Positions 1 through 16,947 are shown, numbered from the stretch's first letter. The stretch is 16,947 nt of DNA from an uncultured archaeon (GCA_964388035.1 CAYLZE010000038.1:1-16947), one strand, 5' to 3'. Program-made: numbers and translations. Notes: generated by a model not told the origin, from the sequence alone.

Positions 1-1
1 A

Positions 2-1318: not shown

Positions 1319-1392
1319 TTATTATTTAATATTGCTCTAAATATTTTAATTATTTAAGCTAAATAACTTAATAAAATACCATTTATTTGAAA

Positions 1393-2193
1393 TTATATAG
1401 AATTTAATCTTTTCTGGCATATCTCAACTGCTTTTGGGTTGATATCGCAACCGATATAATTTCTTTGCAAATTTTTTGCGGCTACTAAGGTAGATCCCGA
1501 GCCACAAAAAAAATCCGAAATTAAATCTCCCGCATTTGAAGAAGCTGAAATTATCCTCTCTACTAATTTTACAGGTTTCTGCGTGGGGTATCCATGATAT
1601 TCTCTAGACCGTGTGGTTGTCTGAAAAGAGTAAATATCGTTCCATGTATCTCCTAAGGGTGTTCCGGGATTTTCATCTAAATATTGCTTTCCTCCCCTTC
1701 TTTTTCTGTATAACCTACCATCTAGATCTCGATATCTAAACATCTTTTTCACATATTCTTTACGATAGGGCAAATATTGTTTATTAAAAGTATATTCATT
1801 GGATTTAGTATAAAATAGAATTGTATCATGTTGGCGAATCCATCCTTTCACTTGACTTTTAAAGCCGGATATACTGCCCACGTTCCAAATAATATCCCTT
1901 CGAAAATTTTCTTTTCCAAATATTTCATCACATAACAACTTAAGTTCAAAAAGGGCATTCTGATCGCAATGCAAGTAGAAGCTCCCCGTTTTCTTTAGCA
2001 CGCGATGCATTTCTTTAATGCGCGATCCCATAAATTTAAGGTAAGCAGCGATAGAATTCCATTTATCGTTAAATTCATCATAATCAACTTGAGAAAAGAA
2101 GGGAGGATCAATGTATATCAAGTCAATTTTCTCTGATTCGAATTCTGATAACAATTCTTTATTATCTCTCAGATATACGTGATCCAATTTCAT
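1393..2193 (-). CDS. DNA adenine-N6/cytosine-N4 methyltransferase, beta class (N6_N4_Mtase family)
   Basis: Catalytic motif IV IDLIYIDPPF near the N-terminus, YPTQKP, and SAM-binding motif I DFFCGSGST near the C-terminus followed by YIGCDIN. This motif order defines the beta class. Confidence 0.93.
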   Translation of the reverse strand: MKLDHVYLRDNKELLSEFESEKIDLIYIDPPFFSQVDYDEFNDKWNSIAAYLKFMGSRIKEMHRVLKKTGSFYLHCDQNALFELKLLCDEIFGKENFRRDIIWNVGSISGFKSQVKGWIRQHDTILFYTKSNEYTFNKQYLPYRKEYVKKMFRYRDLDGRLYRKRRGGKQYLDENPGTPLGDTWNDIYSFQTTTRSREYHGYPTQKPVKLVERIISASSNAGDLISDFFCGSGSTLVAAKNLQRNYIGCDINPKAVEICQKRLNSI

Positions 2194-2228
2194 TTCAGAA
2201 TAAATAGAATGTAATATTAATAAATATT

Positions 2229-2630
2229 ATGGAAAGGATACGATTAAATAAAACTTTACTACAAAAATATGAAAAGGTTGATTTTTCCCATATTAAGGAA
2301 GAGAAAATTTATCTCGTTGGTTCTATTACCAAGGCAAAGGAATATTTTATAGAAATTGAGACAATATTGCAAATATTGTACCATAAACTGGTCTCAATAT
2401 GTTCCGTGGACGGATTATTAAACAAAGAAGCTTTTTCTAATAAAGAGTGGTTAGAATTACAGCAAATTGCTTTAAAAAAATTGCATTATCAAGATGCCAT
2501 TTTAGTACTTGATGTGGATGGATATTTAGGTAAAGAATCCCGGGAAGAAATAGAGATTTTTGAAAAAACCATCGGAAAACCCATCTATTATTTATCGCGA
2601 TTGAGTAATTCAGATGAAAAAAGTACTTAA
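2229..2630 (+). CDS. Nucleoside 2-deoxyribosyltransferase-like (NDT/DUF4406-like) small protein
   Basis: KIYLVGS first strand and DAILVLDVDGYLGKESREEIE..GKPIYYL C-terminal half match the NDT-superfamily pattern, including a candidate nucleophile Glu. Confidence 0.65.
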   Translation: MERIRLNKTLLQKYEKVDFSHIKEEKIYLVGSITKAKEYFIEIETILQILYHKLVSICSVDGLLNKEAFSNKEWLELQQIALKKLHYQDAILVLDVDGYLGKESREEIEIFEKTIGKPIYYLSRLSNSDEKST

Positions 2631-2649
2631 TCTTTTTAATTAAAGATTA
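2628..2649. repeat. Inverted repeat at the NDT-like stop codon, possible terminator hairpin
   Basis: TAATCTTT-ttaatt-AAAGATTA followed by a T run. Confidence 0.35.
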
Positions 2650-2661
2650 TTTTAAGCATTC

Positions 2662-2677
2662 ATTAAATCGATTTAAT
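2662..2677. promoter_or_regulatory. Perfect 16-bp palindrome upstream of the GPN GTPase gene, candidate operator
   Basis: ATTAAATCGATTTAAT is its own reverse complement. Confidence 0.35.
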
Positions 2678-2690
2678 TTGAAATCAATTT

Positions 2691-3482
2691 TTGAGGTCGA
2701 ATGTTATTTTATTAAATTATTTTATTGGAACTGCAGGGTCAGGCAAATCCACCCTCACGGGTGCTTTAAAGAATTATTTGATCAATCGGGACCCGGAAAT
2801 TTCTGCAATCACCTTGAATTTAGATCCTGGTGCAGAAATATTACCTTATGATCCTGATATAGATATTAGAGATTTCATCGTTTTAAGAGAAGTAATGGAA
2901 GAGTATGGCTTGGGACCTAATGGTGCCATGATCCTTTCCTCAGATCTCATGGTAAACTATTTAGATGATCTTAAAGAAGAGATTGATGAGTTTAATCCCG
3001 ATTGGATTTTAGTGGATACTGCCGGGCAATTAGAATTATTTGCCTTCCGAGATACGGGGCCCTTAATAGCAAGTTCATTAGGTTTTGGAGATATTCAAAG
3101 ATCGGTATCCTTTCTATTTGATTCAAACTTGGTGCTTAGACCCAATGGCTTCATTTCCACGCTTTTACTGGCAGCTTCCGTGCAGTTTCGCTTCCAGAAA
3201 ATTCCTCAAATTAATATCCTTTCCAAGATCGATTTATTAGATGAGGATCAAATTGATATGATTATAAATTGGAGCACGGATTTTGTGGCATTGGAGGAAT
3301 ATACGAGCGAGAGAGAAATGGGATTGATCAGGGAATTATCCATGCTGCTTTCAGATGTGTTTGTCCAATTAGGATCGACCTCAGAATTAACTCCTTGTTC
3401 TATTAAGGAGGAAAATGGGTTGGATTTACTCTTTGCATACCTTCAAAGAATCTTCGATGAAGATAAGAGTAAATATTATTGA
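2691..3482 (+). CDS. GPN-loop GTPase (ATP_bind_1 family)
   Basis: G1 GTAGSGKS, G2 NLDPG, signature GLGPNG, G3 DTAGQLE, G4 SKID. The start codon is uncertain (TTG 2691). Confidence 0.95.
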   Translation: MRSNVILLNYFIGTAGSGKSTLTGALKNYLINRDPEISAITLNLDPGAEILPYDPDIDIRDFIVLREVMEEYGLGPNGAMILSSDLMVNYLDDLKEEIDEFNPDWILVDTAGQLELFAFRDTGPLIASSLGFGDIQRSVSFLFDSNLVLRPNGFISTLLLAASVQFRFQKIPQINILSKIDLLDEDQIDMIINWSTDFVALEEYTSEREMGLIRELSMLLSDVFVQLGSTSELTPCSIKEENGLDLLFAYLQRIFDEDKSKYY

Positions 3483-3542
3483 TAGTGTAATTTTTAACTA
3501 AATATCACTATTGAAACAAAATTCAAGAAGTTCTCATAAATT

Positions 3543-4640
3543 ATGAAAATAATTGGACCTATTGCTGGAATTGGAAGCCGTCTCAGACCTTTCACCTTTA
3601 GCAAACCCAAGGCATTCATAAGCGTGGCAGGTAAAACCGTTTTAGACCATATTTTAGAAAAATTCACCAATACCTTCGATTCGAATACGGAATTAATCTT
3701 GATCGTGGGTTATAAAAAACGACAAATTATGAATTATGTGAAAAAGCACTATCAAAATAGGTTTAAACTTACATTTATTGAGCAAATACCCCGGGGATAT
3801 CTTGATAATATTCCATATTATTGGGGTTTGGGACAAGCAATTTACTTGGCTCATGACCGATTCGAAGATGAAATTATTGAAAATGCCGAACAAGACAAGA
3901 GGGAGGGGGCACTCATTTTTTTGGGAGATATGATACCTCTAGATGAATATTCTTACATCATGTATAAATATTTTGGGTCAGAGGTGGATGGAATTATTAC
4001 AGTGATGAAAGTGCCTAAAGAAAATGCCAGTTCTTATGGAGTTGTAGAGATTGATGAGAACGGGATGATAAAAAGATTAATCGAAAAACCCAAAGAATTT
4101 ATTTCAGATTTAGCTATCGCAGGAATATATGCTTTTTCAAATACAGCTACGCGGGCTTTATTTAAAAATCTTGAGGTCTATTTGAATCAAAGAAATGAAA
4201 ACTCTGGTGAGATTTACATGACAGAAAGTCTACAAGATTTGGTTGATCAGGGGTTTAAAATTGCCGCAGTTCTTCTAAAACAAGGGATTTTGGATTTTGG
4301 ACGTCCTTCAGAGTTATTGAAGGGAAATAGATATTTATTAGAACAAAATGGCAGTAAAAAAGAGGATTTTGAACGATTAAATATTACTATCGAAAGATCT
4401 TTTTTGAAAAATCCAATTTATATTGGGAAAAATACCAGAATCATAAATTCAGTGGTTGGTCCGAATGTATCTGTAGGAGATAATTCAATCATAGAAAACT
4501 CAATACTGAACGATTGTCTCATTGAGAGAAATACATTCTTAAAAAATATGATTTCGGAAAAATCCATCATTGGAAGTAATGTGAAAATTGAAAATATCTC
4601 GAAAAATTACTTAATTATAGGAGATAAAAGTCAATATTAA
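3543..4640 (+). CDS. Sugar-1-phosphate nucleotidyltransferase (glucose-1-P thymidylyltransferase-like) with C-terminal left-handed beta-helix
   Basis: AGIGSRLRPFTFSKPK, GLGQA, LGD, YGVV, EKP, GIY, GEIYMT, DFG motifs, and hexapeptide-like repeats (IGKNTRIINSVVGPNVSVGDNSIIENS). Confidence 0.9.
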   Translation: MKIIGPIAGIGSRLRPFTFSKPKAFISVAGKTVLDHILEKFTNTFDSNTELILIVGYKKRQIMNYVKKHYQNRFKLTFIEQIPRGYLDNIPYYWGLGQAIYLAHDRFEDEIIENAEQDKREGALIFLGDMIPLDEYSYIMYKYFGSEVDGIITVMKVPKENASSYGVVEIDENGMIKRLIEKPKEFISDLAIAGIYAFSNTATRALFKNLEVYLNQRNENSGEIYMTESLQDLVDQGFKIAAVLLKQGILDFGRPSELLKGNRYLLEQNGSKKEDFERLNITIERSFLKNPIYIGKNTRIINSVVGPNVSVGDNSIIENSILNDCLIERNTFLKNMISEKSIIGSNVKIENISKNYLIIGDKSQY

Positions 4641-4779
4641 AAAATTTTGAAATTAATTGGTTTTTCATTCTATAGAATAATTAAAATTAAATGAAAAAAA
4701 TAATAAATATGATTCATATATTAGTTTCAGCGTAAAAAGTATCAATTCTAATATTAATTAATTTAAAAAAGGTAATAAC

Positions 4780-6246
4780 ATGCCAGACAAAGAAGATTCA
4801 GAGAAAATTTACGTAGCTTTTGATGGTAATCATAAAGATAGAGGTAAAATTAATGAAAATTATTCTACCTTAAGAGATACTTTAAATAATAATAATTTTG
4901 TTGGTTATAATTTCTTAGATCCCTTAACTTATGAAAACTTACGATCCTTCGATATTTTCGTTCTAGCTTGTCCCGATTTTTCTAAATTATCTCGACAAGA
5001 AATAAGCAGTATTGAAAGGTGGGTCTTGGAAGACGGAGGGGGATTATTATTATTATCTCATGCGGGAGGAGATAAGGGACGAAATAGTAATTTATCGGAA
5101 TTAAGCGAAAGATTTGGTATAGCATTTGAAAATGATCAGGTATTAGATGCGACAAATAATTTAGGGTTTGAAAATCTTCCCATTATCCATAATTTTAGAC
5201 CTCCACATCCTGTTTCAGAGGGAATTTCTTCGTTATGTTATCGAGCAGGGTGTTCTTTAACAATTATTGGGACTGCTTTTTCAATTACTTATTCTAATGA
5301 AACATCAGAACCTTTTTCTTGTCCATTAATATGCGTTGCGCAACCTGAAAAAGGTAAGGTTTGTGCGATTGGTAGTTATGAAATGTTTAGAAATGACATT
5401 GGTGGGGGTTTTGATTACGAAGACCATTCCCAATTAGCTTTAAATGTTTTCAATTGGTTGGTATCAGACGCGCGGCAAGAATTAAAATCAAAAGGATTAG
5501 TCGAATCTCCTGAGCTTATCGAACGTGATTTAAGTGCGGAAGCTATTCAAACAGTGCTTGATTCAACTACGAATGAATTTGAATCCACCGAACCCAATTC
5601 CGGAGCACATCATGAAATGAACATTGATTTTGATATCAAGATATCATCAAAAAGTGAATTAATTGACCTACTATATACTTTTTCAAAACAAATCGATAAG
5701 ATTCAAAAAGTAATTACTAAATTACTTAAAATTGCGGTTGCATCGGAAGATGAAATTGCAGAATTGCAAAAAACACGCATTTGCGTTCCTCCTGGAACAA
5801 CCAGCTCTCAAGATACCCTTCAACAAACTCAACAAGAGCTTTCTCCAATCCAAGAAGGTTCAGTCAACCAAGAGGATATCATCCAATCAATAGTCTCAGA
5901 TCTAGAAAAAAAAGCTATAATTAAGGATAAAGGCATTCTTAGTGAGATTAAAAAGAAAGGGGATGCAATGAATGAGGAAACTGAAAGGACCGTAGAAGAA
6001 CTCCAGAAAGATGCGGGAAAGACAGGGGATGAAAAATTAACAAGGGAAGAGCTGCAAGAGGAAAAAAAGAATTTAGAGAACCGCAAAAACTCCATTACTT
6101 ATCTCATGGATTTCATCCAAAAAAAGTTTGAATCGGAAAAGTTAGAAGAAGAATCATATAAAAGTCAATCTGAAGATCTTAAAGAAGATCTAAAGAAATT
6201 GAATAAAAGAATCAAGGAAATCGACAAGTTTCTCGAAGACCTCTAA
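4780..6246 (+). CDS. Soluble GIFT-domain (GldG/IFT52, DUF4350-like) protein with acidic linker and C-terminal coiled coil
   Basis: N-terminal ~227 aa has VAFDGNH, DIFVLACP, GGGLLLL, N.L.ERFGI.F.ND, GKVCAIGS..MF, N.FNWL. No signal peptide or TM seen. E/K-rich heptads at about 5980-6246. Confidence 0.8.
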   Translation: MPDKEDSEKIYVAFDGNHKDRGKINENYSTLRDTLNNNNFVGYNFLDPLTYENLRSFDIFVLACPDFSKLSRQEISSIERWVLEDGGGLLLLSHAGGDKGRNSNLSELSERFGIAFENDQVLDATNNLGFENLPIIHNFRPPHPVSEGISSLCYRAGCSLTIIGTAFSITYSNETSEPFSCPLICVAQPEKGKVCAIGSYEMFRNDIGGGFDYEDHSQLALNVFNWLVSDARQELKSKGLVESPELIERDLSAEAIQTVLDSTTNEFESTEPNSGAHHEMNIDFDIKISSKSELIDLLYTFSKQIDKIQKVITKLLKIAVASEDEIAELQKTRICVPPGTTSSQDTLQQTQQELSPIQEGSVNQEDIIQSIVSDLEKKAIIKDKGILSEIKKKGDAMNEETERTVEELQKDAGKTGDEKLTREELQEEKKNLENRKNSITYLMDFIQKKFESEKLEEESYKSQSEDLKEDLKKLNKRIKEIDKFLEDL

Positions 6247-6247
6247 C

Positions 6248-6253
6248 TTTTTT
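6248..6253 (+). terminator. Oligo-T tract between convergent genes, possible archaeal intrinsic terminator
   Basis: TTTTTT begins 2 nt after the stop at 6246 and overlaps the convergent stop at 6252. Confidence 0.3.
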
Positions 6254-7589
6254 AATTCTCTATTTTTGATATCTCTTGTTTCTTTTTAAGGTCTTCAGGC
6301 AAGTAGTTTTGTGCATATTTATAAAGTATGTCAAAGAAATCCTTATCGCTTACTCCTTTAGTTATTTTTTTCATTTCCTCTTTAATGATTGCGAATGATT
6401 TTCTTAGCTCTTCCTTGGAAGTGGTTTCATGTTTCGTTTTTACTTCATTTACAATCTTTTTGATGACTTCATCGGGAAGGTTTAAATCTAGTACTTCAAT
6501 TTTATTCTTAATTGCATATAAAATTGATTTTGAACCAGAAAACTTTCCTAAATAGAATTTTCTTCGTCTTCCAACCATGTGCGGGTTGATTGGCTCATAT
6601 GTTAAGGGATGTGCTAAAATAGCCGCAATATGCAGACCGCTTTCATGAGAAAAAGCATTTTCTCCTACAATTGGCTTGTAAGGGGAGAGTGGCTGGCAAA
6701 AATATTTTTCACACGTCTCGCTAAGTTCAGGTAATTTTTTCAAATTTATCCCTGTATCAATGCCCATTCTTTCCAGTATTGTAGCCACCTCTTCCAAGGC
6801 AGCATTACCTGCTCTTTCACCATAACCATTTATGCAGGTATGGGGATAGAGACATCCGTCGAATACGCCCATTATAGTATTAGCAGTAGCAAGTCCGAAA
6901 TCATTATGCGTGTGTATTCCCATGGGAATGTCTTGTTTAAGAGGTTCTAAGACTTCCTTTTTAATTCTTCTTATTAAATATGAAGTAGAAACGGGAGTTA
7001 ATACTCCAACCGTGTCCCCTAGTACAACTCTTTCAGCTCCGGATTTTATGGCCGTCTGAAACACGTTTTTTAAATGTTCAAATTCTGCCCGTGTTCCATC
7101 TTCGGATACCCAATTTACTTTAAATCCATTATCTTTGGCATAATGTAGTGCCTCTTGAATTTGATGTAATTCATCTTCTTCTCTCAATTTTAATGTTTTC
7201 ATGAAGATGGGTGAAATAGGCATGAATATTACTATCTCTTGGAGATCTGCATCAATACAGGCATCAATATCGCTTTTCTTTGGTCTCGCCACCCCTAATA
7301 TAGTTGCCTTCTTACAATTTTCATTGACAATAGTCTTAACAATTTTCTTCTCCGATTCAGATACGGCTGGAAAGCCAACGGCAATCAATTTTACCCCAAT
7401 TTCATCCATTAATTTCGCTAAATGTATTTTTTCATCTAGGGTAAGGTACACCGTGGGGCTTTGTTCCCCATCCCTTAAAGTTTCATCCCAAATGTAAGCT
7501 TTCGGGGGTAATTCGTAATCTTTTAGGGCAATTTTATTATAATCAACAAGCAGTTTTTCAAGTTCTTCCCTAGTGAATTTATAGCTCAT
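6252..7589 (-). CDS. DRE-TIM acetyl-CoA condensing enzyme (isopropylmalate/citramalate/homocitrate synthase family), no LeuA allosteric domain apparent
   Basis: DETLRDGEQ, AVGFP, DTVG, HTHNDFGLA, NGYGERAGNA, VGENAFSHESGLH, YEP, LGKFSG. Confidence 0.92.
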   Translation of the reverse strand: MSYKFTREELEKLLVDYNKIALKDYELPPKAYIWDETLRDGEQSPTVYLTLDEKIHLAKLMDEIGVKLIAVGFPAVSESEKKIVKTIVNENCKKATILGVARPKKSDIDACIDADLQEIVIFMPISPIFMKTLKLREEDELHQIQEALHYAKDNGFKVNWVSEDGTRAEFEHLKNVFQTAIKSGAERVVLGDTVGVLTPVSTSYLIRRIKKEVLEPLKQDIPMGIHTHNDFGLATANTIMGVFDGCLYPHTCINGYGERAGNAALEEVATILERMGIDTGINLKKLPELSETCEKYFCQPLSPYKPIVGENAFSHESGLHIAAILAHPLTYEPINPHMVGRRRKFYLGKFSGSKSILYAIKNKIEVLDLNLPDEVIKKIVNEVKTKHETTSKEELRKSFAIIKEEMKKITKGVSDKDFFDILYKYAQNYLPEDLKKKQEISKIEN

Positions 7590-7772
7590 TTTAAAATGGA
7601 TAAAACTTCGTAATTAAGATAATTATCAAAGTGTATAAACTTAAATAAAGTAAATTATTCATTTCTCAAATCTATAAATAGTTTAAAATTTTTCAAAAAA
7701 GGATCTGATAAAAAATATAAGAGATGGATGAATGAAACACACCTCTTTTTAGCCGTTCAAGAATTTCAAGAT

Positions 7773-8195
7773 TTACTTTATGATATCTGTAATGAAGCAC
7801 GTTTCTATTATTTTAATACCTTCAATTCGTGATATCTTATTTTCAATTAAAGGATTGAATTCTTCAATAGAGGGAATCTCTACTTTTAAAAATAATCCGC
7901 AGTCCCCTGAAAGTCGCCATATATCTGTTACTTCTTCGACTTGCCTTAGCTCATTCAAGATTCTCTTTATCTCCTTAAAATCAGGTTCGATCTTAACCGT
8001 AGCTCGCGTTTTTGGCTTACTGTTTACAGAGTAATCAATCGTAAATTTCTTAATCACCCCATCATCCATTAACTTTTTAACCCTTCTCCTTACAGTAGCT
8101 TCAGTTTTTCCCACTCTTTGACTGATTTCATTGAATGAAACTCGACTATTATTTTTTAATTCTTCCAAGATCTTAAGATCTATTACGTCCATCAT
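7773..8195 (-). CDS. Lrp/AsnC family transcriptional regulator
   Basis: D..DLKILEELKNNSRVSFNEISQRVGKTEATVRRRVKKLMDDGVIKKF HTH, plus a RAM domain with LSGDCGL. Confidence 0.95.
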   Translation of the reverse strand: MMDVIDLKILEELKNNSRVSFNEISQRVGKTEATVRRRVKKLMDDGVIKKFTIDYSVNSKPKTRATVKIEPDFKEIKRILNELRQVEEVTDIWRLSGDCGLFLKVEIPSIEEFNPLIENKISRIEGIKIIETCFITDIIK

Positions 8196-8449
8196 TTCAA
8201 TCTACAAACTTTTTTAAATTAATTATTTTTAATCAAAATGCAATTTTATATTCTCAATGTTTAAAATCATTTATTATATAATATAAAATGTGAGAATTAC
8301 TAATTAAAATTTTTTAAACCATGTTAAAAAATTAAAAACTAATTTTAAATTTCAACATTTTTATCGAAAAAAATAAAATGAATGATTAAAAAAAAATAAT
8401 TTATTGTAGTAATTCTATAAAAATTAAATATCTTTATAAAAATAAAAAA

Positions 8450-10069
8450 ATGAAAGATTTATTTTTGGGCTTAGATTGCTCCACCCAAGGAATAACGGCT
8501 CTCATCATCGAGGAAAAGTCCAATTCAATAATATTCATGTACTCTTTAAACTTTGATAACGCCCTCCCTCAATATCACACCAAAAATGGAGTTATATCCT
8601 TTAATGATAAGACGATTCATTCCAATCCCCTCATGTGGGTGGAAGCCTTGGAACTCATATTTGAAAATATTCGGAAAAAAGGAATTGAACTTGATAACAT
8701 AAAAGCCATTTCGGGTTCCGCTCAACAACATGGTACAGTATATCTAAATCGATCTTTTGAGGAAATTCTATTAAATTTAAATCCAGATCTTTCCTTAACC
8801 TCTCAATTAAAACATTGTTTCTCGAGGAAGACAAGTCCTATTTGGATGGATTCGAGTACTTCCTCGCAATGCGAGGAAATTCGACAATCATTGGGTGGAA
8901 TGGAAACCACAATTCAAATAACAGGGTCAAATACCTACGAAAGGTTTTCAGGGCCTCAAATACGGAAGTTTTTTCAAGAAGACCCTGATAACTATAGGGA
9001 TACCTTTATAATTCACCTTGTCAGTTCCTTCATGGCATCGCTTTTGATTGGAAAAAATGCACCAATCGACCATTGTGATGGATCGGGAATGAACTTGATG
9101 AACATTCACACTAAAGAATGGGACGATAAGGCGTTAAATGCAACAGCGCCCAATTTGAAAACCAAACTACCAAATTTATGTGGTGCGCAAGAAGTAATTG
9201 GAAAAATCTCTCCCTATCATGTAAAGAGACATGGATTTAACCCGGAAACTTTAATAATTGCTTGGTCCGGGGATAATCCCAATAGCTTAATAGGAATTGG
9301 ATTAATAAATAAAGGAAAAGCAGGGATTAGTTTGGGAACAAGTGATACATATTTTAGTTATTTAAAGAATCTTTATTTAGATGTGAAAGGAGAAGGACAT
9401 GTATTTGGGGCTCCTACAGGTGATTACATGAGTTTGATATGCTTTAAGAACGGATCTTTAACCCGAGAGCATCTAAAAGAATCCTGGGGATTAACTTGGA
9501 AAGAATTTTCAAACATTTTAATGAAAACCCCCCCGGGAAATCGTGGAAAAATCATGTTGCCTTATTACTTACCTGAAATTGTACCTCTTGTTTTAAATCC
9601 TCAAATTAAGCGTTTTGGATTTGATCAAACTGATAAAGAAGGAAATGTCCGAGGAATTATTGAAGCCCAATTCTTATCCATGAGATTACATTCCCAATGG
9701 ATTCAAGAACGTCCTATTGAAATTTATGTTACAGGAGGTGCCTCAGTGAACGAGGAAATAATTCAAGTCTTAGCTGATGTTTTTGGTGTAAAGATATATA
9801 TGTTTGAATTCACGAATTCAGCAGCATTAGGTGCGGCTCTCAGGAGTATATATTCATATACTCAGTTTAATAATCAAAAAAAAAGTTGGGAGTCAATTGT
9901 GAAGAGATTTTTAGAACCGCATCTTAGTAAGTCTATCATTCCCCGCCTTCAATATAAAAAAATGTATGATGATATGTTAAAACTATATGATCAATGCGAA
10001 AGCTACTTTTTACGCAATGGAGATGACCCAGAACCTTATAGAAAGCACTTCATTGATAAATATTTTTAA
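8450..10069 (+). CDS. xylB: FGGY carbohydrate kinase, xylulokinase of the eukaryote-type XYLB/XKS1 subgroup
   Basis: LGLDCSTQ, SGSAQQHG, IWMDSST, ERFSGPQIRK, LVSSF, DGSGMNL, GDNP, SLGTSDT, EGHVF, CFKNGSLTRE, TGGAS.N, NSAALGAA. Confidence 0.85.
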   Translation: MKDLFLGLDCSTQGITALIIEEKSNSIIFMYSLNFDNALPQYHTKNGVISFNDKTIHSNPLMWVEALELIFENIRKKGIELDNIKAISGSAQQHGTVYLNRSFEEILLNLNPDLSLTSQLKHCFSRKTSPIWMDSSTSSQCEEIRQSLGGMETTIQITGSNTYERFSGPQIRKFFQEDPDNYRDTFIIHLVSSFMASLLIGKNAPIDHCDGSGMNLMNIHTKEWDDKALNATAPNLKTKLPNLCGAQEVIGKISPYHVKRHGFNPETLIIAWSGDNPNSLIGIGLINKGKAGISLGTSDTYFSYLKNLYLDVKGEGHVFGAPTGDYMSLICFKNGSLTREHLKESWGLTWKEFSNILMKTPPGNRGKIMLPYYLPEIVPLVLNPQIKRFGFDQTDKEGNVRGIIEAQFLSMRLHSQWIQERPIEIYVTGGASVNEEIIQVLADVFGVKIYMFEFTNSAALGAALRSIYSYTQFNNQKKSWESIVKRFLEPHLSKSIIPRLQYKKMYDDMLKLYDQCESYFLRNGDDPEPYRKHFIDKYF

Positions 10070-10242
10070 ATATTTTGGAAAGTTTTAGTAAATTCAATTG
10101 TTTTTTTTCTTATCATTTTTTATATCACAATTTTGAGGAGAAAGATAAGTTGAAGAGAGAAGTTAAATAAAATAATAATTAATTCACGTAAAATTTAAAA
10201 TTCATGTTATAGGTTTTATTTATTTATTGCTTAAAATTATTA

Positions 10243-10255
10243 TACTAATATAGTA
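10243..10255. promoter_or_regulatory. Candidate TrmB-type operator
   Basis: TACTA-ata-TAGTA palindrome just upstream of TATA-like sequences and the trmB-like start. Confidence 0.35.
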
Positions 10256-10290
10256 CATTATAAATTTATATCACAAAAATTTTTTTAAAG

Positions 10291-11097
10291 GTGAACACGG
10301 AATTGAGCAAGGAAATCCCCGATACTGTTAAGGAATCATTAAAACAAATTGGTCTCACGGATTATGAAATATCCATTTACCTGACCTTAATAAGCAAGGG
10401 TCCAATGGATGCGAGGGAATTATCAGAATCCTCTGGGGTCCCTTATTCCCGAATATATAATATATTAACGCAATTAGAAAAGGAAAAACAATGGATCATC
10501 AAGGAAGATTCTCGACCTTCAAGATATTTCGCAAAAAGTCCGGATGAAGCCTTGATCATTGCTAAGAAACAATATAACGACATGTTTGATAATCATTCTA
10601 ATAGTATCATTCATTCTTTATCTCCCATTTATCAATCACATGATACCCCCATCAAGATTTCACTGTATGTCCATCGAGGAAGAGATGTATGCTTGAATAA
10701 AGTCTTGACTTTAATAAATATCGCAAAGACCTCAATTTATATTGTTGCAACTGATTTCGAATTTTTAGATATTTTTTATAAGGACGTCGAAAAAGCTAGA
10801 GCTCGTGGCTGTACGGATTTAAAATTATTGGTGGAAGAGACTGCACTTCAAGACAAAGAAAAAAAAGCCCTCCTCACAAAATATGATACTTTATGTGAGA
10901 TTCGCGTGAGAGACCAAATCTTTGGAGAATCAATCGTAATAGATGAGGGGGAAGACGCATTCATCATCCTTTCACAGAAATTTTTTGAAAAAATGTCATA
11001 TTTTGGGATTTTAGCGGATTACATTGCATTTGCCCCAGCAGCTAATTATTATTTCAGCTATTTATGGAAGACGGCTCAGCCAATTAAGCTTAAATAA
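10291..11097 (+). CDS. TrmB family transcriptional regulator
   Basis: LKQIGLTDYEISIYLTL..G...ARELSESSGVPYSRIYNIL..L..RPSRYFAKSP wHTH, and a C-terminal effector domain (AKTSIYI, SIVIDE, YLWKTA). Confidence 0.92.
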   Translation: MNTELSKEIPDTVKESLKQIGLTDYEISIYLTLISKGPMDARELSESSGVPYSRIYNILTQLEKEKQWIIKEDSRPSRYFAKSPDEALIIAKKQYNDMFDNHSNSIIHSLSPIYQSHDTPIKISLYVHRGRDVCLNKVLTLINIAKTSIYIVATDFEFLDIFYKDVEKARARGCTDLKLLVEETALQDKEKKALLTKYDTLCEIRVRDQIFGESIVIDEGEDAFIILSQKFFEKMSYFGILADYIAFAPAANYYFSYLWKTAQPIKLK

Positions 11098-11165
11098 ACT
11101 TCAAATTCCTTTTTTGTATAAAAATTTTCTTCTATCTCCTAAAATTTTCTTCAAAATGATTTAAT

Positions 11166-11954
11166 ATGGCAAGTAAAAATGCGCTAGTTACAGGATCTAC
11201 TCGAGGTATTGGAAAAGCAATTGCTTTTGAACTTGCCGAGTTGGGATATCATGTTATTTTTAATGGTGCTTCTACTACGAAATTACCCGAGGAGGACAAG
11301 AATCGTTTAAAAGAAATATATAATTCTGATCAAGAAAATTATTCTTTTATAAAAGCGGATATTAGCAATCCTCAAGAACGGAATAATATGATTTCAACTC
11401 TTAAAGGAAGGTTTGATCAGCTTGATGTTTTGGTCAACAATGCGGGCGTAGCCCCCAGAGAGCGTAAAGATCTTCTAGAAGCTTCAGAGCAAGAATTCGA
11501 ACGAGTGTTGCGAATTAACCTCCAAGGACCATACTTTCTAACTCAACAAATTGCAAGGTGGATGATTGAAAAAAAGAAAGAAAAACAAGAGGAATATTCT
11601 CCTTATATCATAAACATTTCTTCCTTATCAAGTTATGCCGCCTCTTCCAATCGAGGAGAATATTGTGTTTCAAAAGCTGGTTTAAGCATGATGACAAAAT
11701 TGTTCGCAATAAGACTGGCAGAATATCAAATACCGGTATATGAAATTCAACCAGGAATAATTAAAACATCCATGACAGAACCGGTAAGAGAAAAATACGA
11801 CAAATTATTCGAAGAGGGTATTACCCCCTTAAAGAGATGGGGATTACCTGAAGATGTAGCAAGAGCAGTAAAAGCCATCGTAGAAGGAAACATTCCTTAT
11901 TCCACGGGAGAGGTGATCCATATTGATGGGGGATTCCATCTCCAACATCTCTAA
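11166..11954 (+). CDS. Classical short-chain dehydrogenase/reductase (PRK12745-like subfamily)
   Basis: TGSTRGIG, NNAGVAP, catalytic S..YCVSK (NRGEYCVSKAGLSM), PGIIKT, IDGG. Confidence 0.93.
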   Translation: MASKNALVTGSTRGIGKAIAFELAELGYHVIFNGASTTKLPEEDKNRLKEIYNSDQENYSFIKADISNPQERNNMISTLKGRFDQLDVLVNNAGVAPRERKDLLEASEQEFERVLRINLQGPYFLTQQIARWMIEKKKEKQEEYSPYIINISSLSSYAASSNRGEYCVSKAGLSMMTKLFAIRLAEYQIPVYEIQPGIIKTSMTEPVREKYDKLFEEGITPLKRWGLPEDVARAVKAIVEGNIPYSTGEVIHIDGGFHLQHL

Positions 11955-11969
11955 AAGAAGTGACGCTAT

Positions 11970-14048
11970 ATGGATCTGGGAAATCTCAAATTAAGGAAAG
12001 AAAATATAATTTCTTGTAATTCATTGATTATAGGTTCTGGAGCCGCAGGATTAAACTGTTCACTTCACCTTTTAGATGAAGGGGTGGAGAGATCGGAAAT
12101 CCTAATTCTTACCGATAAATTAGGAGGAGGGACATCCTTCAATACGGGCTCCGATAAGCAAACTTATTATAAATTATCGATCCTTGGTGAAGAATTAGAT
12201 TCACCCATATCAATGGCGAATGAATTATATCAGGGCGGGGCGATGCATGGAGATATTGCACTGGTGGAAGCAACTAATTCTTTGAGAGAGTTTTTTCATT
12301 TAGTTCAGCTTGGCGTTCCTTTTCCTCACGATCGATTTGGAGGATACGTAGGATATAAAACAGATAATGATCCCCGACAAAGAGCCACTTCAATAGGGCC
12401 TTTAACCTCACGCGAAATGTGCGAATGTTTATTAAAAGAGGTTAAAGGTAAAAATATTCCCATTCATGACGGTCTATTTGCTATCCGAATATTACTTGAT
12501 AGAACTTTCGAAAAATCTCAAGCCATTGGATTATTATGTGTTAAACTAGATGAATTAGCTGATTATAAGGATCTTGAAAATTTATTAGAATGCATTAGAA
12601 TTTATCAAGCTCAGAACATCATATTAGCCACGGGAGGTCCCGCGGGCATATATAAAAATTCAGTTTATCCCCTCTCTCAATGGGGTTCGACGGGATTAGC
12701 AATAGAAGCGGGGGCAATGCTTCAAAATTTAACAGAATCCCAATTTGGCTTGGCTTCAATTGATTTTCGGTGGAACGTTTCGGGATCTTATCAACAAGTA
12801 ATTCCTCGCTACGTTTCTATTGATGAAAATGATGAGGAGAATGAATTCCTTGAACAATATTTTCCAACTTTTGAATTACTCTCCAAGGCAATATTTTTAA
12901 AAGGATATCAATGGCCCTTTAATTCTGAGAGAATTGAACAACATGGCTCCTCTTTAATTGATTTGGCTGTATATCATGAAACAGAAGATTTAAACCGACG
13001 AGTTTATTTAGATTATACTATAAATCCTAATGGTTTTGACATGAATTATTTGGATCTCGTTGCTAAAACCTACTTATCTCGTTCTGATGCAATGGAGGAT
13101 TCCCCCATTAAACGTCTTTTAAAACTAAACGAGCGAGCGTACCAACTTTATTTAAGTCACAATATTGATTTAAAGAAAGATAAGCTCCAAATTGCAGTTT
13201 GCAATCAGCATCTTAATGGAGGTATTGCTTGTGATCTTTGGTGGGAATCAATATCCGTTAAAAATTTGTTTGCTATAGGAGAAGTGAACGGAAGTCATGG
13301 AATTCATAGGCCCGGAGGAAGTGCTCTAAATGCGGGGCAAGTAGGAGGATTGAGAGCTGCTCAAAAGATAGGAAATTTTCATGTTTATTCGACAACTGAT
13401 TCACATAAATTTGAATTTATTGCATCAAATGAATTAAAAACACTTCTTTCCGAATTACTTCCCTTATTTAATAATAATAATTCATTCGATAACAAGGATC
13501 TTAAAATCATTGGTAAAAAAAAGCAGTCTCTTGAGAATTATATTGATCAAATGAGGAATAGAATGGCTAAATTTGGTGGGATTATTAGACCATATAAAGG
13601 ATTGGAACAAGAATTAAACCATCTTTTCTCTACTATAATTCACTTGAACTCGATGGTCGATATTGAAACCAATAAAAATATCATTCCTTATTTTAAATTA
13701 AAAGACTCCTTATTAATGCAATATTTTATTTTAAATTCCATAAAAGAATATCATCATTCATTCGGGAATAGTAGGGGCTCCTGTATCATTATACGGGATA
13801 CATTGAATCCTTTGTATGAGGAAAAAAGGGTAATTCTTCCTGGAAAATTACAAAAATATAATTTTATACAAAGTAATAGAAATTTGAGTGACCAGATCCT
13901 AACAATCCAATTGAAAGAAAGTAAAGGTGATTCTAAGCAACCAGTTTCAATGACTCTTGGATGGAATAAGGTGAGGGAAATTCCCAAAGTTTCCACTTGG
14001 TTTGAAAACACTTGGAAAGATTATGAAAACGGCAAAATTTATCAGTAA
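11970..14048 (+). CDS. FAD-dependent oxidoreductase, SdhA/FrdA/NadB superfamily, substrate unknown
   Basis: IIGSGAAG dinucleotide motif, ILATGG, GA.L.NL.E.QF, QHLNGGI, NLFAIGEV.GSHGIHRPGGSAL, SRG near the C-terminus. Starts 15 bp after the SDR stop. Confidence 0.85.
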   Translation: MDLGNLKLRKENIISCNSLIIGSGAAGLNCSLHLLDEGVERSEILILTDKLGGGTSFNTGSDKQTYYKLSILGEELDSPISMANELYQGGAMHGDIALVEATNSLREFFHLVQLGVPFPHDRFGGYVGYKTDNDPRQRATSIGPLTSREMCECLLKEVKGKNIPIHDGLFAIRILLDRTFEKSQAIGLLCVKLDELADYKDLENLLECIRIYQAQNIILATGGPAGIYKNSVYPLSQWGSTGLAIEAGAMLQNLTESQFGLASIDFRWNVSGSYQQVIPRYVSIDENDEENEFLEQYFPTFELLSKAIFLKGYQWPFNSERIEQHGSSLIDLAVYHETEDLNRRVYLDYTINPNGFDMNYLDLVAKTYLSRSDAMEDSPIKRLLKLNERAYQLYLSHNIDLKKDKLQIAVCNQHLNGGIACDLWWESISVKNLFAIGEVNGSHGIHRPGGSALNAGQVGGLRAAQKIGNFHVYSTTDSHKFEFIASNELKTLLSELLPLFNNNNSFDNKDLKIIGKKKQSLENYIDQMRNRMAKFGGIIRPYKGLEQELNHLFSTIIHLNSMVDIETNKNIIPYFKLKDSLLMQYFILNSIKEYHHSFGNSRGSCIIIRDTLNPLYEEKRVILPGKLQKYNFIQSNRNLSDQILTIQLKESKGDSKQPVSMTLGWNKVREIPKVSTWFENTWKDYENGKIYQ

Positions 14049-14051
14049 ATC

Positions 14052-15452
14052 TTATAACTCTTTCATGCCTCGATATCTATTTTTATAATAATCATCTCGA
14101 ATCACGCAGCCCGTGTTCAATCCTTTTCTCATTAGAGCGGTACATTTTGAACAACCAATGCAAGTCAATTTTTTATCTATTCCTCCTTCTTGAAAGATTT
14201 GCCTGGGGTAATAGGGATTGGCAATAGACATTCTCCCAAATCCGCAGATATCAATCTTGTTTTCTCGAATGAGTCCAGCACAAATCAAGGGACCATAATG
14301 TCGAAGATAAGAATATCCCGATCCTAATACCACCATGCTTTTTGGGGCATTAGTCTTAATCATGGAAGCTAATTTAATAATTCTTCCAACCCCATATAAA
14401 GGATGTTCAGAGGGATACTCTCCCCCGCTAACTGGAGTGTTAAAAGGTCTGGTTAAATATGGTTTATAATATGGATTTCCCGCTGTTATATTTATTAATT
14501 TCACGCCTAAGGAATTAAGTTCTTTTATGATCTCCACTGGTTCTGATAAATCCACGGTGTTGGTTAAAGCATGATCTTCATTATACTCCACGCCAAATCC
14601 ATTAGGATAAGGATTTTCATCATACACTCCAAGTCGGCTGGTAATTAAAAACTTATCCTTATTACTTAATTTCTTAAAAAGTTTTGAGATTATATTGAAG
14701 AAAAATTTCGTTCTATTTTTTAAACTTGACCCCCCATATTCTGAATTCAAGCGAGATTTCGAGGAAATAAGCTCACTAATCAAATATCCATGACAAGCTT
14801 TAATATCTACTCCATCGAACCCCGCTTCTATGGCCAAGATTGCCTTTTCTACCCAAAGATCTTCAAGGGCTTTTAAATTCTCATCAGAGAGCAAGATCCC
14901 ATCTTCTTGAGAAACACCCATTGCTTTATCAAGGACAGGATTTTGATACGCTTTTATTGGAAATTTATGACCATTTTTCTTGCTATATCTACCAGAATGG
15001 TTTAATTGTAAAATTAAAATCGAATTACCTTTATACCCTAATTCTTTAGATGTTTCAACACAGTGACTTTTTATTGTTGAAACAAGGGACTTAAATTTCC
15101 CTACATTCTTTTCTGAAAGATATAATTGATGTTGATTCGATTTTCCTTCAGGAGATATAGCCGTGGCTTCAAACCATATTATGCCTGCGCCCCCCTTCGC
15201 ATAACGTTCATACCTTCTTAATGTTAAATCCCCGGGACTTCCCTCAGAATCTGCATCATACCCTTCCATGGGCTGAACAGCCAAACGATTAGGCACGAGA
15301 AAGTTCCCTATTTTAATACTATCTTTTAGTATTTCACAATCTTGATCGATGGGTATATCTAATTCTAATTTCCTAAATTCGTTTCTTAAATCATCGATTG
15401 TTTTATATTTGAAGGGTTGAAAATTTTGGGCATAAAGGTTTTTCTCAATCAT
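14052..15452 (-). CDS. NADH:flavin oxidoreductase (Old Yellow Enzyme family) with C-terminal four-Cys Fe-S motif
   Basis: NRLAVQPME, YERYAKGGAGIIWFEA, QLNHSGR, AGFDGVDIKACHGYLI, YGGSSLKNR, GFGR..IANP, CIGCSKC-x11-C. ATG 15452 is preferred over the non-ATG start at 15476. Confidence 0.92.
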   Translation of the reverse strand: MIEKNLYAQNFQPFKYKTIDDLRNEFRKLELDIPIDQDCEILKDSIKIGNFLVPNRLAVQPMEGYDADSEGSPGDLTLRRYERYAKGGAGIIWFEATAISPEGKSNQHQLYLSEKNVGKFKSLVSTIKSHCVETSKELGYKGNSILILQLNHSGRYSKKNGHKFPIKAYQNPVLDKAMGVSQEDGILLSDENLKALEDLWVEKAILAIEAGFDGVDIKACHGYLISELISSKSRLNSEYGGSSLKNRTKFFFNIISKLFKKLSNKDKFLITSRLGVYDENPYPNGFGVEYNEDHALTNTVDLSEPVEIIKELNSLGVKLINITAGNPYYKPYLTRPFNTPVSGGEYPSEHPLYGVGRIIKLASMIKTNAPKSMVVLGSGYSYLRHYGPLICAGLIRENKIDICGFGRMSIANPYYPRQIFQEGGIDKKLTCIGCSKCTALMRKGLNTGCVIRDDYYKNRYRGMKEL

Positions 15453-15639
15453 TAAGTCGACCCTTATTCCTGTCAAATATTGTTAATTAAGCTTGAATTA
15501 TTTAAACAAAATATTTTTTTATTCATAAAGACATTTGATTTTACCAAGAGAATGTAGATATATTGATTAATTTAATTAAGAAATAATACATGCTACCTAC
15601 TTATAATAATTAGTATTAAAATAGCCATCGTGGAAAAAA

Positions 15640-16422
15640 TTGAAACAAATTGCTATTGCCTTAATCGCCTACAAGGAGGTTAATCTTACTTGGTTAAAGA
15701 AATTAAAAGAGAACTTCAAAGCTACCATTATTCTCTCTTTTGATGAACCAAAAAGTTGGATATTTACTAAATTTTGCGATAATTTTTTAGTTAATTCCCA
15801 ACATCTTGGATTTGGTAAAAATAGACGGATGTCCATGCTTTTAGCGAGCGAGTTTGGAGAATATTGCCTAATTACGGATGGAGATGGACAATTTCCTATG
15901 CCTTCATTGGAGAAGGTTCTGGATATATTACAGAGTGATCATTGGGACGTGGTAATTCCTCAAAGACAAAATCGGAGTCTAAAAATGGAATATAATGGAA
16001 AAATCGTGGATCGAATTAATTTTGAACGATTAGAGGCTATATGCGCCAAGAAAGTATTGAATAAAAATGATCTGGGAGATAATTTTGATGCTCAACCTGG
16101 ATTATATGGATTTAAAAGAAATTGCGTGCATTCTATTCTACCAAAAGATAAAGATTGGCTAGCTGATTTTGAAATCACTATAAATGCCATCCAAAAAACC
16201 AAACATGTTTTTACAAATGTGGAAATTGATGAAATGGTACAAGAAAAAACCACCTTTTCCATTGACAATCAACTGAAGAAATTTGAAAGAATTGCTCGGT
16301 GTTATAACATTAATATTGGAGAAATCTATGAACAGAATAGATTCTTATTTACTGAGTTTGAACAAGAAATAATGAAATTAATTCTCTCGAGATTAAAAAA
16401 AGAGTCGGATGTATCATATTAA
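15640..16422 (+). CDS. Glycosyltransferase family 2 (GT-A fold, Dol-P-Man synthase-like), divergent
   Basis: HLGFGKN, LITDGDGQFP (DxD), DVVIPQR, DAQPGLYGF, DFEI. No TM seen. Confidence 0.75.
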   Translation: MKQIAIALIAYKEVNLTWLKKLKENFKATIILSFDEPKSWIFTKFCDNFLVNSQHLGFGKNRRMSMLLASEFGEYCLITDGDGQFPMPSLEKVLDILQSDHWDVVIPQRQNRSLKMEYNGKIVDRINFERLEAICAKKVLNKNDLGDNFDAQPGLYGFKRNCVHSILPKDKDWLADFEITINAIQKTKHVFTNVEIDEMVQEKTTFSIDNQLKKFERIARCYNINIGEIYEQNRFLFTEFEQEIMKLILSRLKKESDVSY

Positions 16423-16659
16423 ATTTAAATAGAGAAAAATTAGGAATCTCCTCATCGATGAAATTCAAACGGCATGATATTAATGCTGAAACAACTAATT
16501 TATTATTCCAATCTTTTAAATATTTGAGTAGAAAATAAATATTTTTAAAAATATTTTAAAGATAACGAAGATAAACTGAACAAACTATATATTTTAAAAT
16601 CTTTAAGATTTTCTATTTTAAAGGGTATACTTTTTATAGGAAAAGGTATTTAGATAATT

Positions 16660-16947
16660 ATGGTGTTAGAACAATTATTTAGTCCTGAAAAAATTGGAAC
16701 ATTGGAAGTCAAGAATCGATTTGTACGATCAGCGACCTATATGAGAAAGGCAGAAAAATATGGGCAAATTGGTGAGAAGCATCTAAATTATTATCGCGAA
16801 TTAGCCAAAGGTGGTATGGGGCTCATCATAACTGGATTCATTTCAGTAGACATTAAAGGAACCGTTAGTCCAAATCAGCCTCTCTTGTCCGATGACTCAT
16901 TTATTTCGGGGCATCAGAAATTAGTGAAAGAAATACACGATAATGAT
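16660..16947 (+). CDS. Second NADH:flavin oxidoreductase (OYE family), 3'-truncated by the window edge; not in the ORF track
   Basis: Manual translation from ATG 16660: MVLEQLFSPEKIGTLEVKNRFVRSATYMRKAEKYGQIGEKHLNYYRELAKGGMGLIITGFISVDIKGTVSPNQPLLSDDSFISGHQKLVKEIHDND, open to the end. This is a typical OYE N-terminus. Confidence 0.92.
   Translation, partial: MVLEQLFSPEKIGTLEVKNRFVRSATYMRKAEKYGQIGEKHLNYYRELAKGGMGLIITGFISVDIKGTVSPNQPLLSDDSFISGHQKLVKEIHDND

Follow-up and report, generated by a model that had tools for sequence, protein, structure and literature searches.

A conserved three-gene flavoenzyme module in an Asgard archaeon and its possible role in sugar-acid catabolism

Introduction

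Flavoproteins of the SdhA/FrdA fold normally pair with an iron-sulphur (Fe-S) subunit such as SdhB, FrdB, TfrB or AprB, and in proteins of this fold a His/Arg pair of the NadB type holds the carboxylate of the substrate. Within the SdhA/FrdA family, the lack of a histidine for covalent attachment of flavin adenine dinucleotide (FAD) is typical of reductases, and not of succinate dehydrogenases. In this paper we analyse a locus of an uncultured Asgard archaeon of salt-marsh sediment in which a flavoprotein of this fold is encoded beside a short-chain dehydrogenase/reductase (SDR) and an Fe-S member of the old yellow enzyme (OYE) family. The stretch of DNA that we analysed (GCA_964388035.1 CAYLZE010000038.1:1-16947), hereafter the window, lies at the very start of a 42.8-kb contig (C38), of which it covers bases 1 to 16,947. 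The genome, of 5.5 Mb, is 96.7% complete; the G+C content is about 32%. (Labels such as C38, G144 and L014 are our own handles for contigs, genomes and loci.)

We found no characterised pathway, curated model or solved structure for the flavoprotein family, for its pairing with an Fe-S OYE, or for the cassette as a whole, and no description of the cassette in the literature that we could search, most subscription journals lying outside that search. We argue below that the three genes form a redox module that acts on a sugar acid and feeds the funnel of 2-keto-3-deoxy acids of the 2-keto-3-deoxygluconate (KDG) type, a reading to which we assign a probability of about one half.

An initial annotation of the window, made from the sequence alone, had joined the trio to a neighbouring kinase and a TrmB regulator in a single pathway that ends in a ketopentose. 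Its gene models hold up: our listing of open reading frames (ORFs) and family scans recover the five genes, their strands and the spacings of 15 bp and 3 bp, and the motif TGSDKQTYYKL that it assigned to the flavoprotein is present, at residues 59-69. Its remark that SDR, FAD protein and OYE recur together in the carbohydrate loci of anaerobes is borne out in bacteria and in Asgard archaea alike, and, as it stated, the combination matches no characterised pathway in the models, structures and searchable literature. Thus, the part of its interpretation that concerns a conserved trio without a described pathway stands; the five-gene ketopentose pathway does not, as we discuss below.

Results

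A conserved trio of genes

The three core genes of the window are the following.

11166-11954, plus strand: SDR, first part of the core, 262 amino acids (NF009386/PRK12745)
11970-14048, plus strand: FAD_binding_2 flavoprotein (P0001), second part of the core, 692 amino acids (PF00890)
14052-15452, minus strand: Fe-S OYE, third part of the core, 466 amino acids from the ATG at 15452 (PF00724)

The SDR and flavoprotein genes are separated by positions 11955-11969 only, and the flavoprotein and OYE genes converge, with their stop codons 3 bp apart.

In a scan of one genome per species we confirmed 590 flavoprotein loci, and the locus counts reported in this paper refer to the best 80 of these (9 Asgard and 71 bacterial), in which the flavoprotein is 40-55% identical to that of the window. 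All carriers of the trio among these 80 loci are anaerobes. The bacterial carriers belong to more than ten phyla, including Aminicenantes/Acidobacteriota, Bacillota, Bacteroidota, Chloroflexota, Synergistota, Thermotogota, Spirochaetota, the Planctomycetes-Verrucomicrobia-Chlamydiae (PVC) group, Fibrobacterota, KSB1 and others.

When all window proteins are compared with these loci by tblastn, homologues of the SDR and of the OYE are found to flank the flavoprotein gene in most of the 80. An unbiased clustering of the ORFs in the loci returns the same three families, with the flavoprotein in 75 loci, the SDR in 53 and the OYE in 52, and the next family in 12; the median distance to the flavoprotein gene is 16 bp for the SDR and 8 bp for the OYE. 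If we retain only those loci whose flanks reach 3 kb or more to each side of the flavoprotein gene (8 archaeal and 47 bacterial, hereafter full-flank loci), then both partners lie within 7 kb in all 8 archaeal loci, and within 5 kb the bacterial loci hold the SDR in 36 of 47 cases, the OYE in 35 and both in 32. Bacterial trios are arranged on a single strand, in the order OYE-flavoprotein-SDR or OYE-SDR-flavoprotein; most Asgard loci have the arrangement of the window, that is, SDR-flavoprotein with a convergent OYE. We conclude that the association of these genes is far more than chance.

The module has a restricted distribution in the archaeal phylum. When 151 genomes of the phylum were sampled evenly, the flavoprotein was found in 9 of the 25 genomes of the window's family, in one of the two genomes of a sister family and nowhere else, and it is therefore accessory. 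A quick maximum-likelihood tree of 60 sequences, computed with no outgroup, splits the 15 Asgard proteins from the 45 bacterial ones with 100% SH-aLRT support.

The SDR itself scores 319 bits on NF009386 (PRK12745), against a cut-off of 250, and among the 28 SDR matches in the genome it alone exceeds that cut-off. The name of this model, 3-ketoacyl-ACP reductase, is provisional and carries no tested function. By general rules for SDRs, the glycine motif TGSTRGIG and the lack of an Asp after strand beta-2 suggest NADP(H) as the cofactor. Homologues at 42-65% identity lie no more than 150 bp from the flavoprotein gene in 7 of the 8 archaeal and 32 of the 47 bacterial full-flank loci.

The flavoprotein

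The flavoprotein matches PF00890 with 51 bits, and no NCBIfam model scores it above cut-off: models of the SdhA/FrdA family (TIGR01812, NF005866 and others) give 40-44 bits against cut-offs of 567-819, and the NadB equivalog TIGR00551 gives 71 bits against 453. The fold is clear in the AlphaFold2 model (pLDDT, the predicted local distance difference test score, 90.8; pTM, the predicted template modelling score, 0.92), which has the four domains of complex II flavoproteins. The top Foldseek matches of this model are FrdA and SdhA structures (E 1e-26, TM score 0.64-0.78, 13-17% identity), in the order E. coli FrdA, mycobacterial and mitochondrial SdhA, and then AprA, 3'-phosphoadenosine-5'-phosphosulphate (PAPS) reductase and NadB. 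Among solved structures none is a near relative by sequence, NadB coming first at E 1.5e-7. At 50% identity, relatives of the protein (E<=1e-30) fall into 417 clusters, and at 90% into thousands; at least 8000 candidates were scored, all of them significant, and the best 120, mostly Asgard, are 52-65% identical. The closest carry the labels Promethearchaeota or Lokiarchaeota. The family is annotated merely as 'FAD-binding protein', and the ESM Atlas, too, gave unnamed clusters with that label.

We judged the conservation of residues on 60 homologues, and compared them with NadB by profile alignment. Across these 60 sequences, which span two domains of life, 102 columns are invariant. They include His414 (C411-x-Q-H414-x-N-G-G), which aligns with His351 of the NadB motif 'AAHYTCGG', and Arg447 ('SHGxxRPGGSALN'), which aligns with Arg386 of the NadB motif 'HGANRMASNSL'. 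Other parts of the site differ. The segment Q258-F-G260 replaces Q-F-His244 of NadB, so that the His of 'QFHPT' becomes Gly260; profile positions 253-394 do not align with NadB, nor does the capping domain; and the loop T55-K68 contains no His for covalent FAD, the corresponding loop of SdhA/FrdA being replaced by the insertion G60-S-D-K-Q-T-Y-Y-K68, which is invariant. Since His414 and Arg447 are kept, while Gly260, the capping domain and the FAD loop are changed, the site probably accommodates a carboxylate and has otherwise been remodelled.

The Fe-S OYE and its natural fusions

The OYE is a flavin mononucleotide (FMN) TIM barrel that matches PF00724 with 92 bits. Translation could also start from a TTG at 15476; the ATG at 15452, from which we number residues, fits the alignment of the family. 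Near its C-terminus the protein carries the motif C-x2-C-x2-C-x11-C (C431/C434/C437/C449), of which C431, C437 and C449 are invariant among 47 homologues and C434 is present in at least 90% of them. The motif K218-A-C-H221-G-Y223 is conserved in the same set: Y223, the proton-donor Tyr of OYEs, is invariant, and an invariant Lys (K218) stands where OYEs usually have the first His of a His/His(Asn) pair, which would be in keeping with an anionic substrate. The chain stops 17 residues past the last Cys and has no FAD/NAD(P)H reductase domain. The models of FadH, 2-enoate reductase and BaiCD, which have 641-768 positions, match it in their first part only. Scores on equivalogs of Fe-S OYEs fall far below cut-off (for example, 59 bits against 825 for BaiCD).

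In two loci the OYE is instead joined to a reductase module. At L057:6540-9185 and L065:7027-9672 the OYE of the trio is a protein of 882 amino acids with the domains Fer4_20 and Pyr_redox_2, a GltD-like NAD(P)H module, and in both loci the flavoprotein and SDR genes still adjoin it.

Fusions of the OYE with the flavoprotein are found in at least seven protein clusters (P0134 and P0274-P0279). In P0134, of 1084 amino acids, residues 6-435 correspond to the OYE, including its Cys motif, at 39% identity, and residues 443-1081 to the flavoprotein at 46%, with a linker of about 8 residues between them. The other six clusters (1073-1159 amino acids, PF00724 and PF00890) are 51-57% identical to P0134 and come from NCBI, JGI, ENA and Logan assemblies; a sequencing artefact is unlikely because there are seven clusters, from different sources, one of which has 11 members. 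We rejected apparent fusions of about 1100 amino acids in the high-GC loci L040 and L069, which are artefacts of ORF calling, the OYE match lying in another frame. The AlphaFold2 model of P0134 has pLDDT 86.7 and pTM 0.62, with the stretch of the Cys motif and linker (422-438) below 50 pLDDT.

No gene for an Fe-S subunit of the SdhB/FrdB/TfrB/AprB type is present in the window or among the conserved neighbours of the trio. Because the OYE has no reductase domain, no such subunit is encoded nearby, and natural OYE-flavoprotein fusions recur, the flavoprotein and the OYE most likely form one two-subunit enzyme with the cofactor series FAD-[4Fe-4S]-FMN. In such an enzyme the FAD of the flavoprotein would be wired to the FMN of the OYE through the C-terminal [4Fe-4S] cluster of the latter, which would take the place held elsewhere in the fold by SdhB/FrdB, AprB or TfrB. 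An SdhA-fold flavoprotein with an OYE as its Fe-S partner would, if true, be a new assembly of known redox parts.

The metabolic neighbourhood of the trio

Among the operon neighbours of the bacterial trio (119 scanned), we find MocA (10), 2-keto-3-deoxy-6-phosphogluconate (KDPG) aldolase (7), PfkB (7) and a TIM barrel resembling xylose isomerase (7), as well as co-directional genes for ATP-binding cassette (ABC) permeases, Zn-dependent dehydrogenases, glycoside hydrolases of family GH38 and regulators of the IclR and LacI types. The aldolase and the kinase are often fused (Eda-PfkB; 951 bits on NF041633), and the PfkB kinase resembles kinases of KDG and its galacto counterpart (KDGal). In a Synergistota locus (L014) the order is DctPQM, a tripartite ATP-independent periplasmic (TRAP) transporter, then flavoprotein, IclR, KdgK and Eda. 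In Halanaerobium (L038) it is LacI-OYE-SDR-flavoprotein-TctC-Usp-TctB-TctA, with UxaE further on.

The neighbours of Asgard trios are glycoside hydrolase GH3, ThuA with MocA, YjeF and DUF169. ThuA and MocA are divergent from the OYE in L006, L011, L115 and L116. In L116 (genome G144), an aldolase of the dihydrodipicolinate synthase (DHDPS)/N-acetylneuraminate-lyase family (11043-11960) stands where the SDR and flavoprotein genes would be, with the kinase-TrmB pair and the OYE kept. The theme common to these neighbourhoods is carboxylated sugars and 2-keto-3-deoxy acids. As a separate observation, contig C1 of the Asgard genome G168 carries a KDPG-aldolase gene (PF01081) about 5 kb from the flavoprotein gene (279710-281686, 287013-287567).

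The window's own genome has the genes of the KDG funnel at other loci, with a KdgK-like PfkB on contig C122 and Eda on C17. We did not find UxuA, KduI, reductases of the mannitol-dehydrogenase type or ThuA in this genome. It does encode UxaC and two proteins resembling altronate dehydratase and, with these and the KdgK-like gene and Eda present, the idea that the trio replaces the uronate pathway finds no support here. The Eda locus (L094, C17:6000-25900) also contains a cupin-type glucose-6-phosphate isomerase, an MFS_2 transporter, an FGGY kinase, an iron-containing alcohol dehydrogenase and a 600-amino-acid fusion of a 2-hydroxyacid dehydrogenase with a domain of the metallo-beta-lactamase fold.

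We also counted gene presence in 41 sampled genomes from this family of archaea, of which 17 have the flavoprotein, 28 the kinase discussed below, 27 Eda and 8 UxaC; these genomes are kin, so that presence counts overstate their independence. Eda occurs in 16 of the 17 genomes with the flavoprotein and in 11 of the 24 without it.

The kinase and TrmB genes

Upstream of the trio, and on the strand of its SDR gene, the window contains the following features.

8450-10069, plus strand: FGGY kinase, 539 amino acids (ORF listing and family scan)
10291-11097, plus strand: TrmB regulator, 268 amino acids (PF01978 and PF11495)
10121-10128 and 10267-10274, plus strand: two copies of TATATCAC, in the region between kinase and trmB; candidate half-sites of a TrmB operator

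From the kinase to the OYE, the intergenic gaps are, in order, 221, 68, 15 and 3 bp. The kinase aligns over its full length with human XYLB (structure 4BC2; E 3.6e-112, residues 5-522 against 12-531) and scores 204 bits on the bacterial XylB model TIGR01312, below its cut-off of 380; by sequence it is a D-xylulokinase of the eukaryotic type. The TrmB protein has the helix-turn-helix domain PF01978 (68 bits) and the effector domain PF11495 (29 bits), and it scores far below the cut-off of every specific NCBIfam TrmB equivalog.

The word TATATCAC has two matches in the window, compared with 0.54 expected, and both fall in the 221-bp region upstream of trmB. A word ATATCAC, which we take to resemble TATCAC, the half-site of the Thermococcales glycolytic motif (TGM), is also found upstream of trmB in the syntenic loci L118 and L086. 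No word of the TATATCAC type precedes the SDR or the OYE. The candidate words upstream of trmB suggest TrmB autoregulation.

Outside the close kin of the window, these two genes do not accompany the trio. By tblastn, the 71 bacterial and 9 other Asgard loci contain neither an FGGY nor a TrmB homologue at 10 kb or less from the flavoprotein gene, with the one exception, for FGGY, of a match of 24% identity at the edge of L023. In the archaeal family the kinase is present in 16 of the 17 genomes with the flavoprotein and in 12 of the 24 without it. Among the 16 that have both, it lies within 6 kb of the flavoprotein in six (G000, G154, G161, G135, G155 and G158), and in the other ten the two are on different contigs. 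When we fetched nine kin loci around the kinase, a block of Lrp and kinase-TrmB was found in five; the trio follows it in L086, L115 and L118, the aldolase and OYE follow it in L116, and L119 has neither. In eight kin loci where the kinase lies elsewhere, we found no TrmB beside the trio. In our reading, the window contains two neighbouring units: the block of xylulokinase and TrmB, and the trio of flavoenzyme genes.

These counts bear on what the initial annotation had proposed. A neighbourhood survey of the kind that it suggested, seeded with the flavoprotein, does return the SDR, the OYE, KDG-type kinases, transporters and hydrolases as recurrent neighbours, but not FGGY or TrmB in bacteria. 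The ketopentose end-product is unsupported because the kinase is absent near the trio in the 71 bacterial loci, and the enzymes downstream in bacteria are KDG kinase and KDPG aldolase. Nor do the five genes behave as a unit, given that the kinase occurs in family genomes without the flavoprotein and that kinase-TrmB persists without the trio in L116 and L119.

Proposed function and alternative explanations

The conservation and close linkage of the trio, its natural fusions, the fold and kept residues of the flavoprotein and the surrounding genes are observed; on them we build a scheme in which we infer a physical complex, an electron path, a reaction direction, a substrate and a product. The flavoprotein would hold the carboxylate of its substrate via His414 and Arg447 and (de)hydrogenate it at C-alpha/C-beta; the site of the OYE (Lys218/His221, with Tyr223 as proton donor) would reduce an activated C=C bond; and the NADP-type SDR would perform a keto/hydroxy step. 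Acting in concert, the three proteins would turn a sugar derivative that bears a carboxylate into a KDG-type 2-keto-3-deoxy sugar acid. In bacteria this product would pass to the adjacent KDG kinase and then to KDPG aldolase, and in this archaeon the corresponding PfkB (C122) and Eda (C17) would act from their other loci, the xylulokinase-TrmB pair being a separate unit that stands beside the module in part of the archaeal family. A stronger form of this proposal, in which the enzyme with two flavins and one [4Fe-4S] cluster represents a hitherto unrecognised class that carries out a net redox-neutral rearrangement of a sugar acid, oxidising one C-C bond and reducing another, is speculative, and we hold it to be doubtful.

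Several observations weigh against the sugar-acid reading. We know of no precedent for making by redox chemistry a product that is otherwise formed by ordinary dehydratases. The partnership of the trio is not obligatory, because 6 of the 47 bacterial full-flank loci have the flavoprotein but no SDR and no OYE up to 10 kb away, and the archaeal genome G144 has the OYE but not the flavoprotein; in the window, moreover, the OYE is convergent and lies outside the SDR-flavoprotein operon. Genes for KDG kinase and KDPG aldolase are absent from the window, with no funnel gene adjacent. The association of Eda with the flavoprotein is no stronger than that of the xylulokinase (16/17 versus 12/24), and it may reflect only a general capacity for sugar catabolism; presence counts do not separate a KDG route from a xylulose route, because Eda and the kinase associate alike. 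Finally, L021, L047, L073 and L076 hold a CoA-transferase gene beside the flavoprotein, and not sugar genes, joined in all of these but L047 by genes for enoyl-CoA hydratase and/or acyl-CoA dehydrogenase. These four loci, along with the tripartite tricarboxylate transporter in L038 and L055, would fit a flavoprotein family that acts on non-sugar organic acids or CoA esters, with the sugar neighbourhood confined to part of the family, and they lie within or close to a distinct bacterial branch whose members often lack the OYE. We consider such a role for the family improbable, given that genes for glycoside hydrolases, MocA, ThuA, TIM-barrel proteins and KDG enzymes are the neighbours in the Asgard clade and in the largest clades of bacteria, and that Eda is present in L021 and L076 as well.

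The module could also serve as a fermentative electron sink, that is, as a soluble reductase of the enoate type that acts on an unsaturated carboxylate (such as an unsaturated acid derived from a uronate), much like the cytoplasmic reductases of fumarate, urocanate, acrylate and cinnamate, and that is not assimilatory toward KDG. Anaerobic members of both flavoprotein families reduce C=C bonds beside a carboxylate or carbonyl, the flavoprotein lacks the His for covalent FAD, every carrier is anaerobic, and in two loci the OYE is fused to the NAD(P)H-oxidising GltD-like module. Set against this are the tight operons with KDG kinase and KDPG aldolase and with regulators and transporters of catabolic type, and the fact that a pure sink would need no SDR, yet one is found in about three quarters of the loci; we regard a sink as quite unlikely. 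The last explanation is the one from which the annotation started: a single pathway of five genes under TrmB control, leading from an unusual sugar to D-xylulose, which the kinase phosphorylates. In its favour, the adjacency of kinase, TrmB, SDR and flavoprotein/OYE in 6 of 16 family genomes extends over the genera g1, g6, g7 and g57, the kinase is enriched in flavoprotein genomes as counted above, and trmB, which shares the strand of the SDR gene, precedes it by 68 bp. This pathway is nonetheless unlikely, for kinase and trio are on different contigs in the remaining 10 genomes, kinase-TrmB occurs without the trio in L116 and L119, FGGY and TrmB are missing near the flavoprotein in the 80 loci, the candidate TrmB sites precede trmB only, and the downstream enzymes of the bacterial operons point to KDG. 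Given the adjacency in six genomes, co-regulation in this lineage may occur, and a functional coupling of the xylulokinase-TrmB block with the trio there deserves a low but not negligible weight.

Other features of the locus

Two further genes lie between the upstream part of the window and the kinase.

6252-7589, minus strand: gene resembling homocitrate/isopropylmalate synthase (ORF and family scan)
7773-8195, minus strand: Lrp/AsnC regulator (ORF and family scan)

Upstream of the kinase block there are also genes for a DNA methylase, a GPN-loop ATPase, a nucleotidyl transferase and a GIFT-domain protein. The last of these (488 amino acids, window 4780-6246) matches the GIFT domain of IFT52 (PF23355) with E 1.2e-15, a domain otherwise known from eukaryotic intraflagellar transport and from bacterial ABC-auxiliary proteins. 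Downstream of the trio follow a gene weakly similar to glycosyltransferase family 2 (GT2), a second, short OYE, a ferredoxin-domain protein and unrelated genes. The second OYE, of 319 amino acids and without the Cys motif, occupies window 16660-16947 and continues to about position 17620 of C38 (L103:261-1220); after it, on the opposite strand, come the genes for a DUF7065 protein and for a protein of 289 amino acids whose ferredoxin domain is of the 2x[4Fe-4S] type. A ferredoxin-domain protein like this one is also found near kinase-TrmB in L119.

A search of sequencing runs finds DNA of the locus in salt-marsh metagenomes, two of which contain more than half of its words, and lists no RNA runs among the matches.

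Discussion

The annotation of this window should distinguish two units, the xylulokinase-TrmB block and the flavoenzyme trio. If the trio does act on sugar acids, then it fills an unrecognised step of anaerobic carbohydrate metabolism in sediments, digesters and guts, and metabolic reconstructions of Asgard archaea and of phyla like Aminicenantes would need revision. If, in addition, the flavoprotein and the OYE catalysed a redox-neutral rearrangement, then they would provide a cofactor-independent route to 2-keto-3-deoxy acids, in place of isomerase and dehydratase steps, in Asgard archaea and many bacterial phyla.

It is useful to compare each part of the locus with the system that it most resembles. 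With the relatives of complex II type (SdhA/FrdA, NadB, TfrA, AprA, flavocytochrome c3 and urocanate reductase), the window's flavoprotein shares PF00890, the four-domain fold, the GxGxxG site for FAD and the His/Arg pair that holds a carboxylate. It differs from them in its identity of only 13-17%, in the change of the QFHPT His to Gly, in the GSDKQTYYK insertion, in having no covalent-FAD His and in a capping domain that cannot be aligned. It has the OYE as its recurrent partner, and no gene for a subunit of the SdhB/FrdB/TfrB/AprB type is found close by.

The OYE, for its part, has the FMN barrel, the CxxCxxC..C motif for a [4Fe-4S] cluster and the Tyr donor in common with FadH, the clostridial 2-enoate reductases, BaiCD/BaiH and BilR. 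Unlike the FadH/BaiCD class, of about 640-670 amino acids, it has some 466 and is without the C-terminal FAD/NAD(P)H domains, it carries a Lys for the first His of the substrate pair, and its electron partner is apparently an SdhA-fold flavoprotein, either separate or fused.

The kinase aligns along its full length with eukaryotic XYLB, and the TrmB protein recalls the Thermococcales TrmB regulon in having both TrmB domains and a repeat containing TATCAC upstream of its gene. Kinase and TrmB both stand outside the conserved module of the trio.

At the level of the pathway, two kinds of route that oxidise, eliminate and reduce, the Bai pathway for bile acids and the 3-keto-glycoside routes, pair an NAD(P)-dependent dehydrogenase with Fe-S flavoenzymes for C=C bonds, as the trio does, and the 3-keto-glycoside routes (MocA/ThuB-type proteins, ThuA and a TIM barrel) recall the neighbours of the trio, MocA and a TIM barrel in bacteria and MocA and ThuA in Asgard archaea. 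The likeness to both is one of logic only, and no enzyme of either is an SdhA-fold flavoprotein. The KDG funnel (UxaC-UxuB/UxaB-UxuA/UxaA, or KduI/KduD and a reductase of 4-deoxy-L-erythro-5-hexoseulose uronate (DEH), followed by KdgK and Eda) has the same downstream genes as the bacterial trio operons, which also contain an SDR similar to KduD/FabG and have carboxylate transporters and UxaE as neighbours. Where that funnel would have isomerases and dehydratases, the trio has two flavoenzymes.

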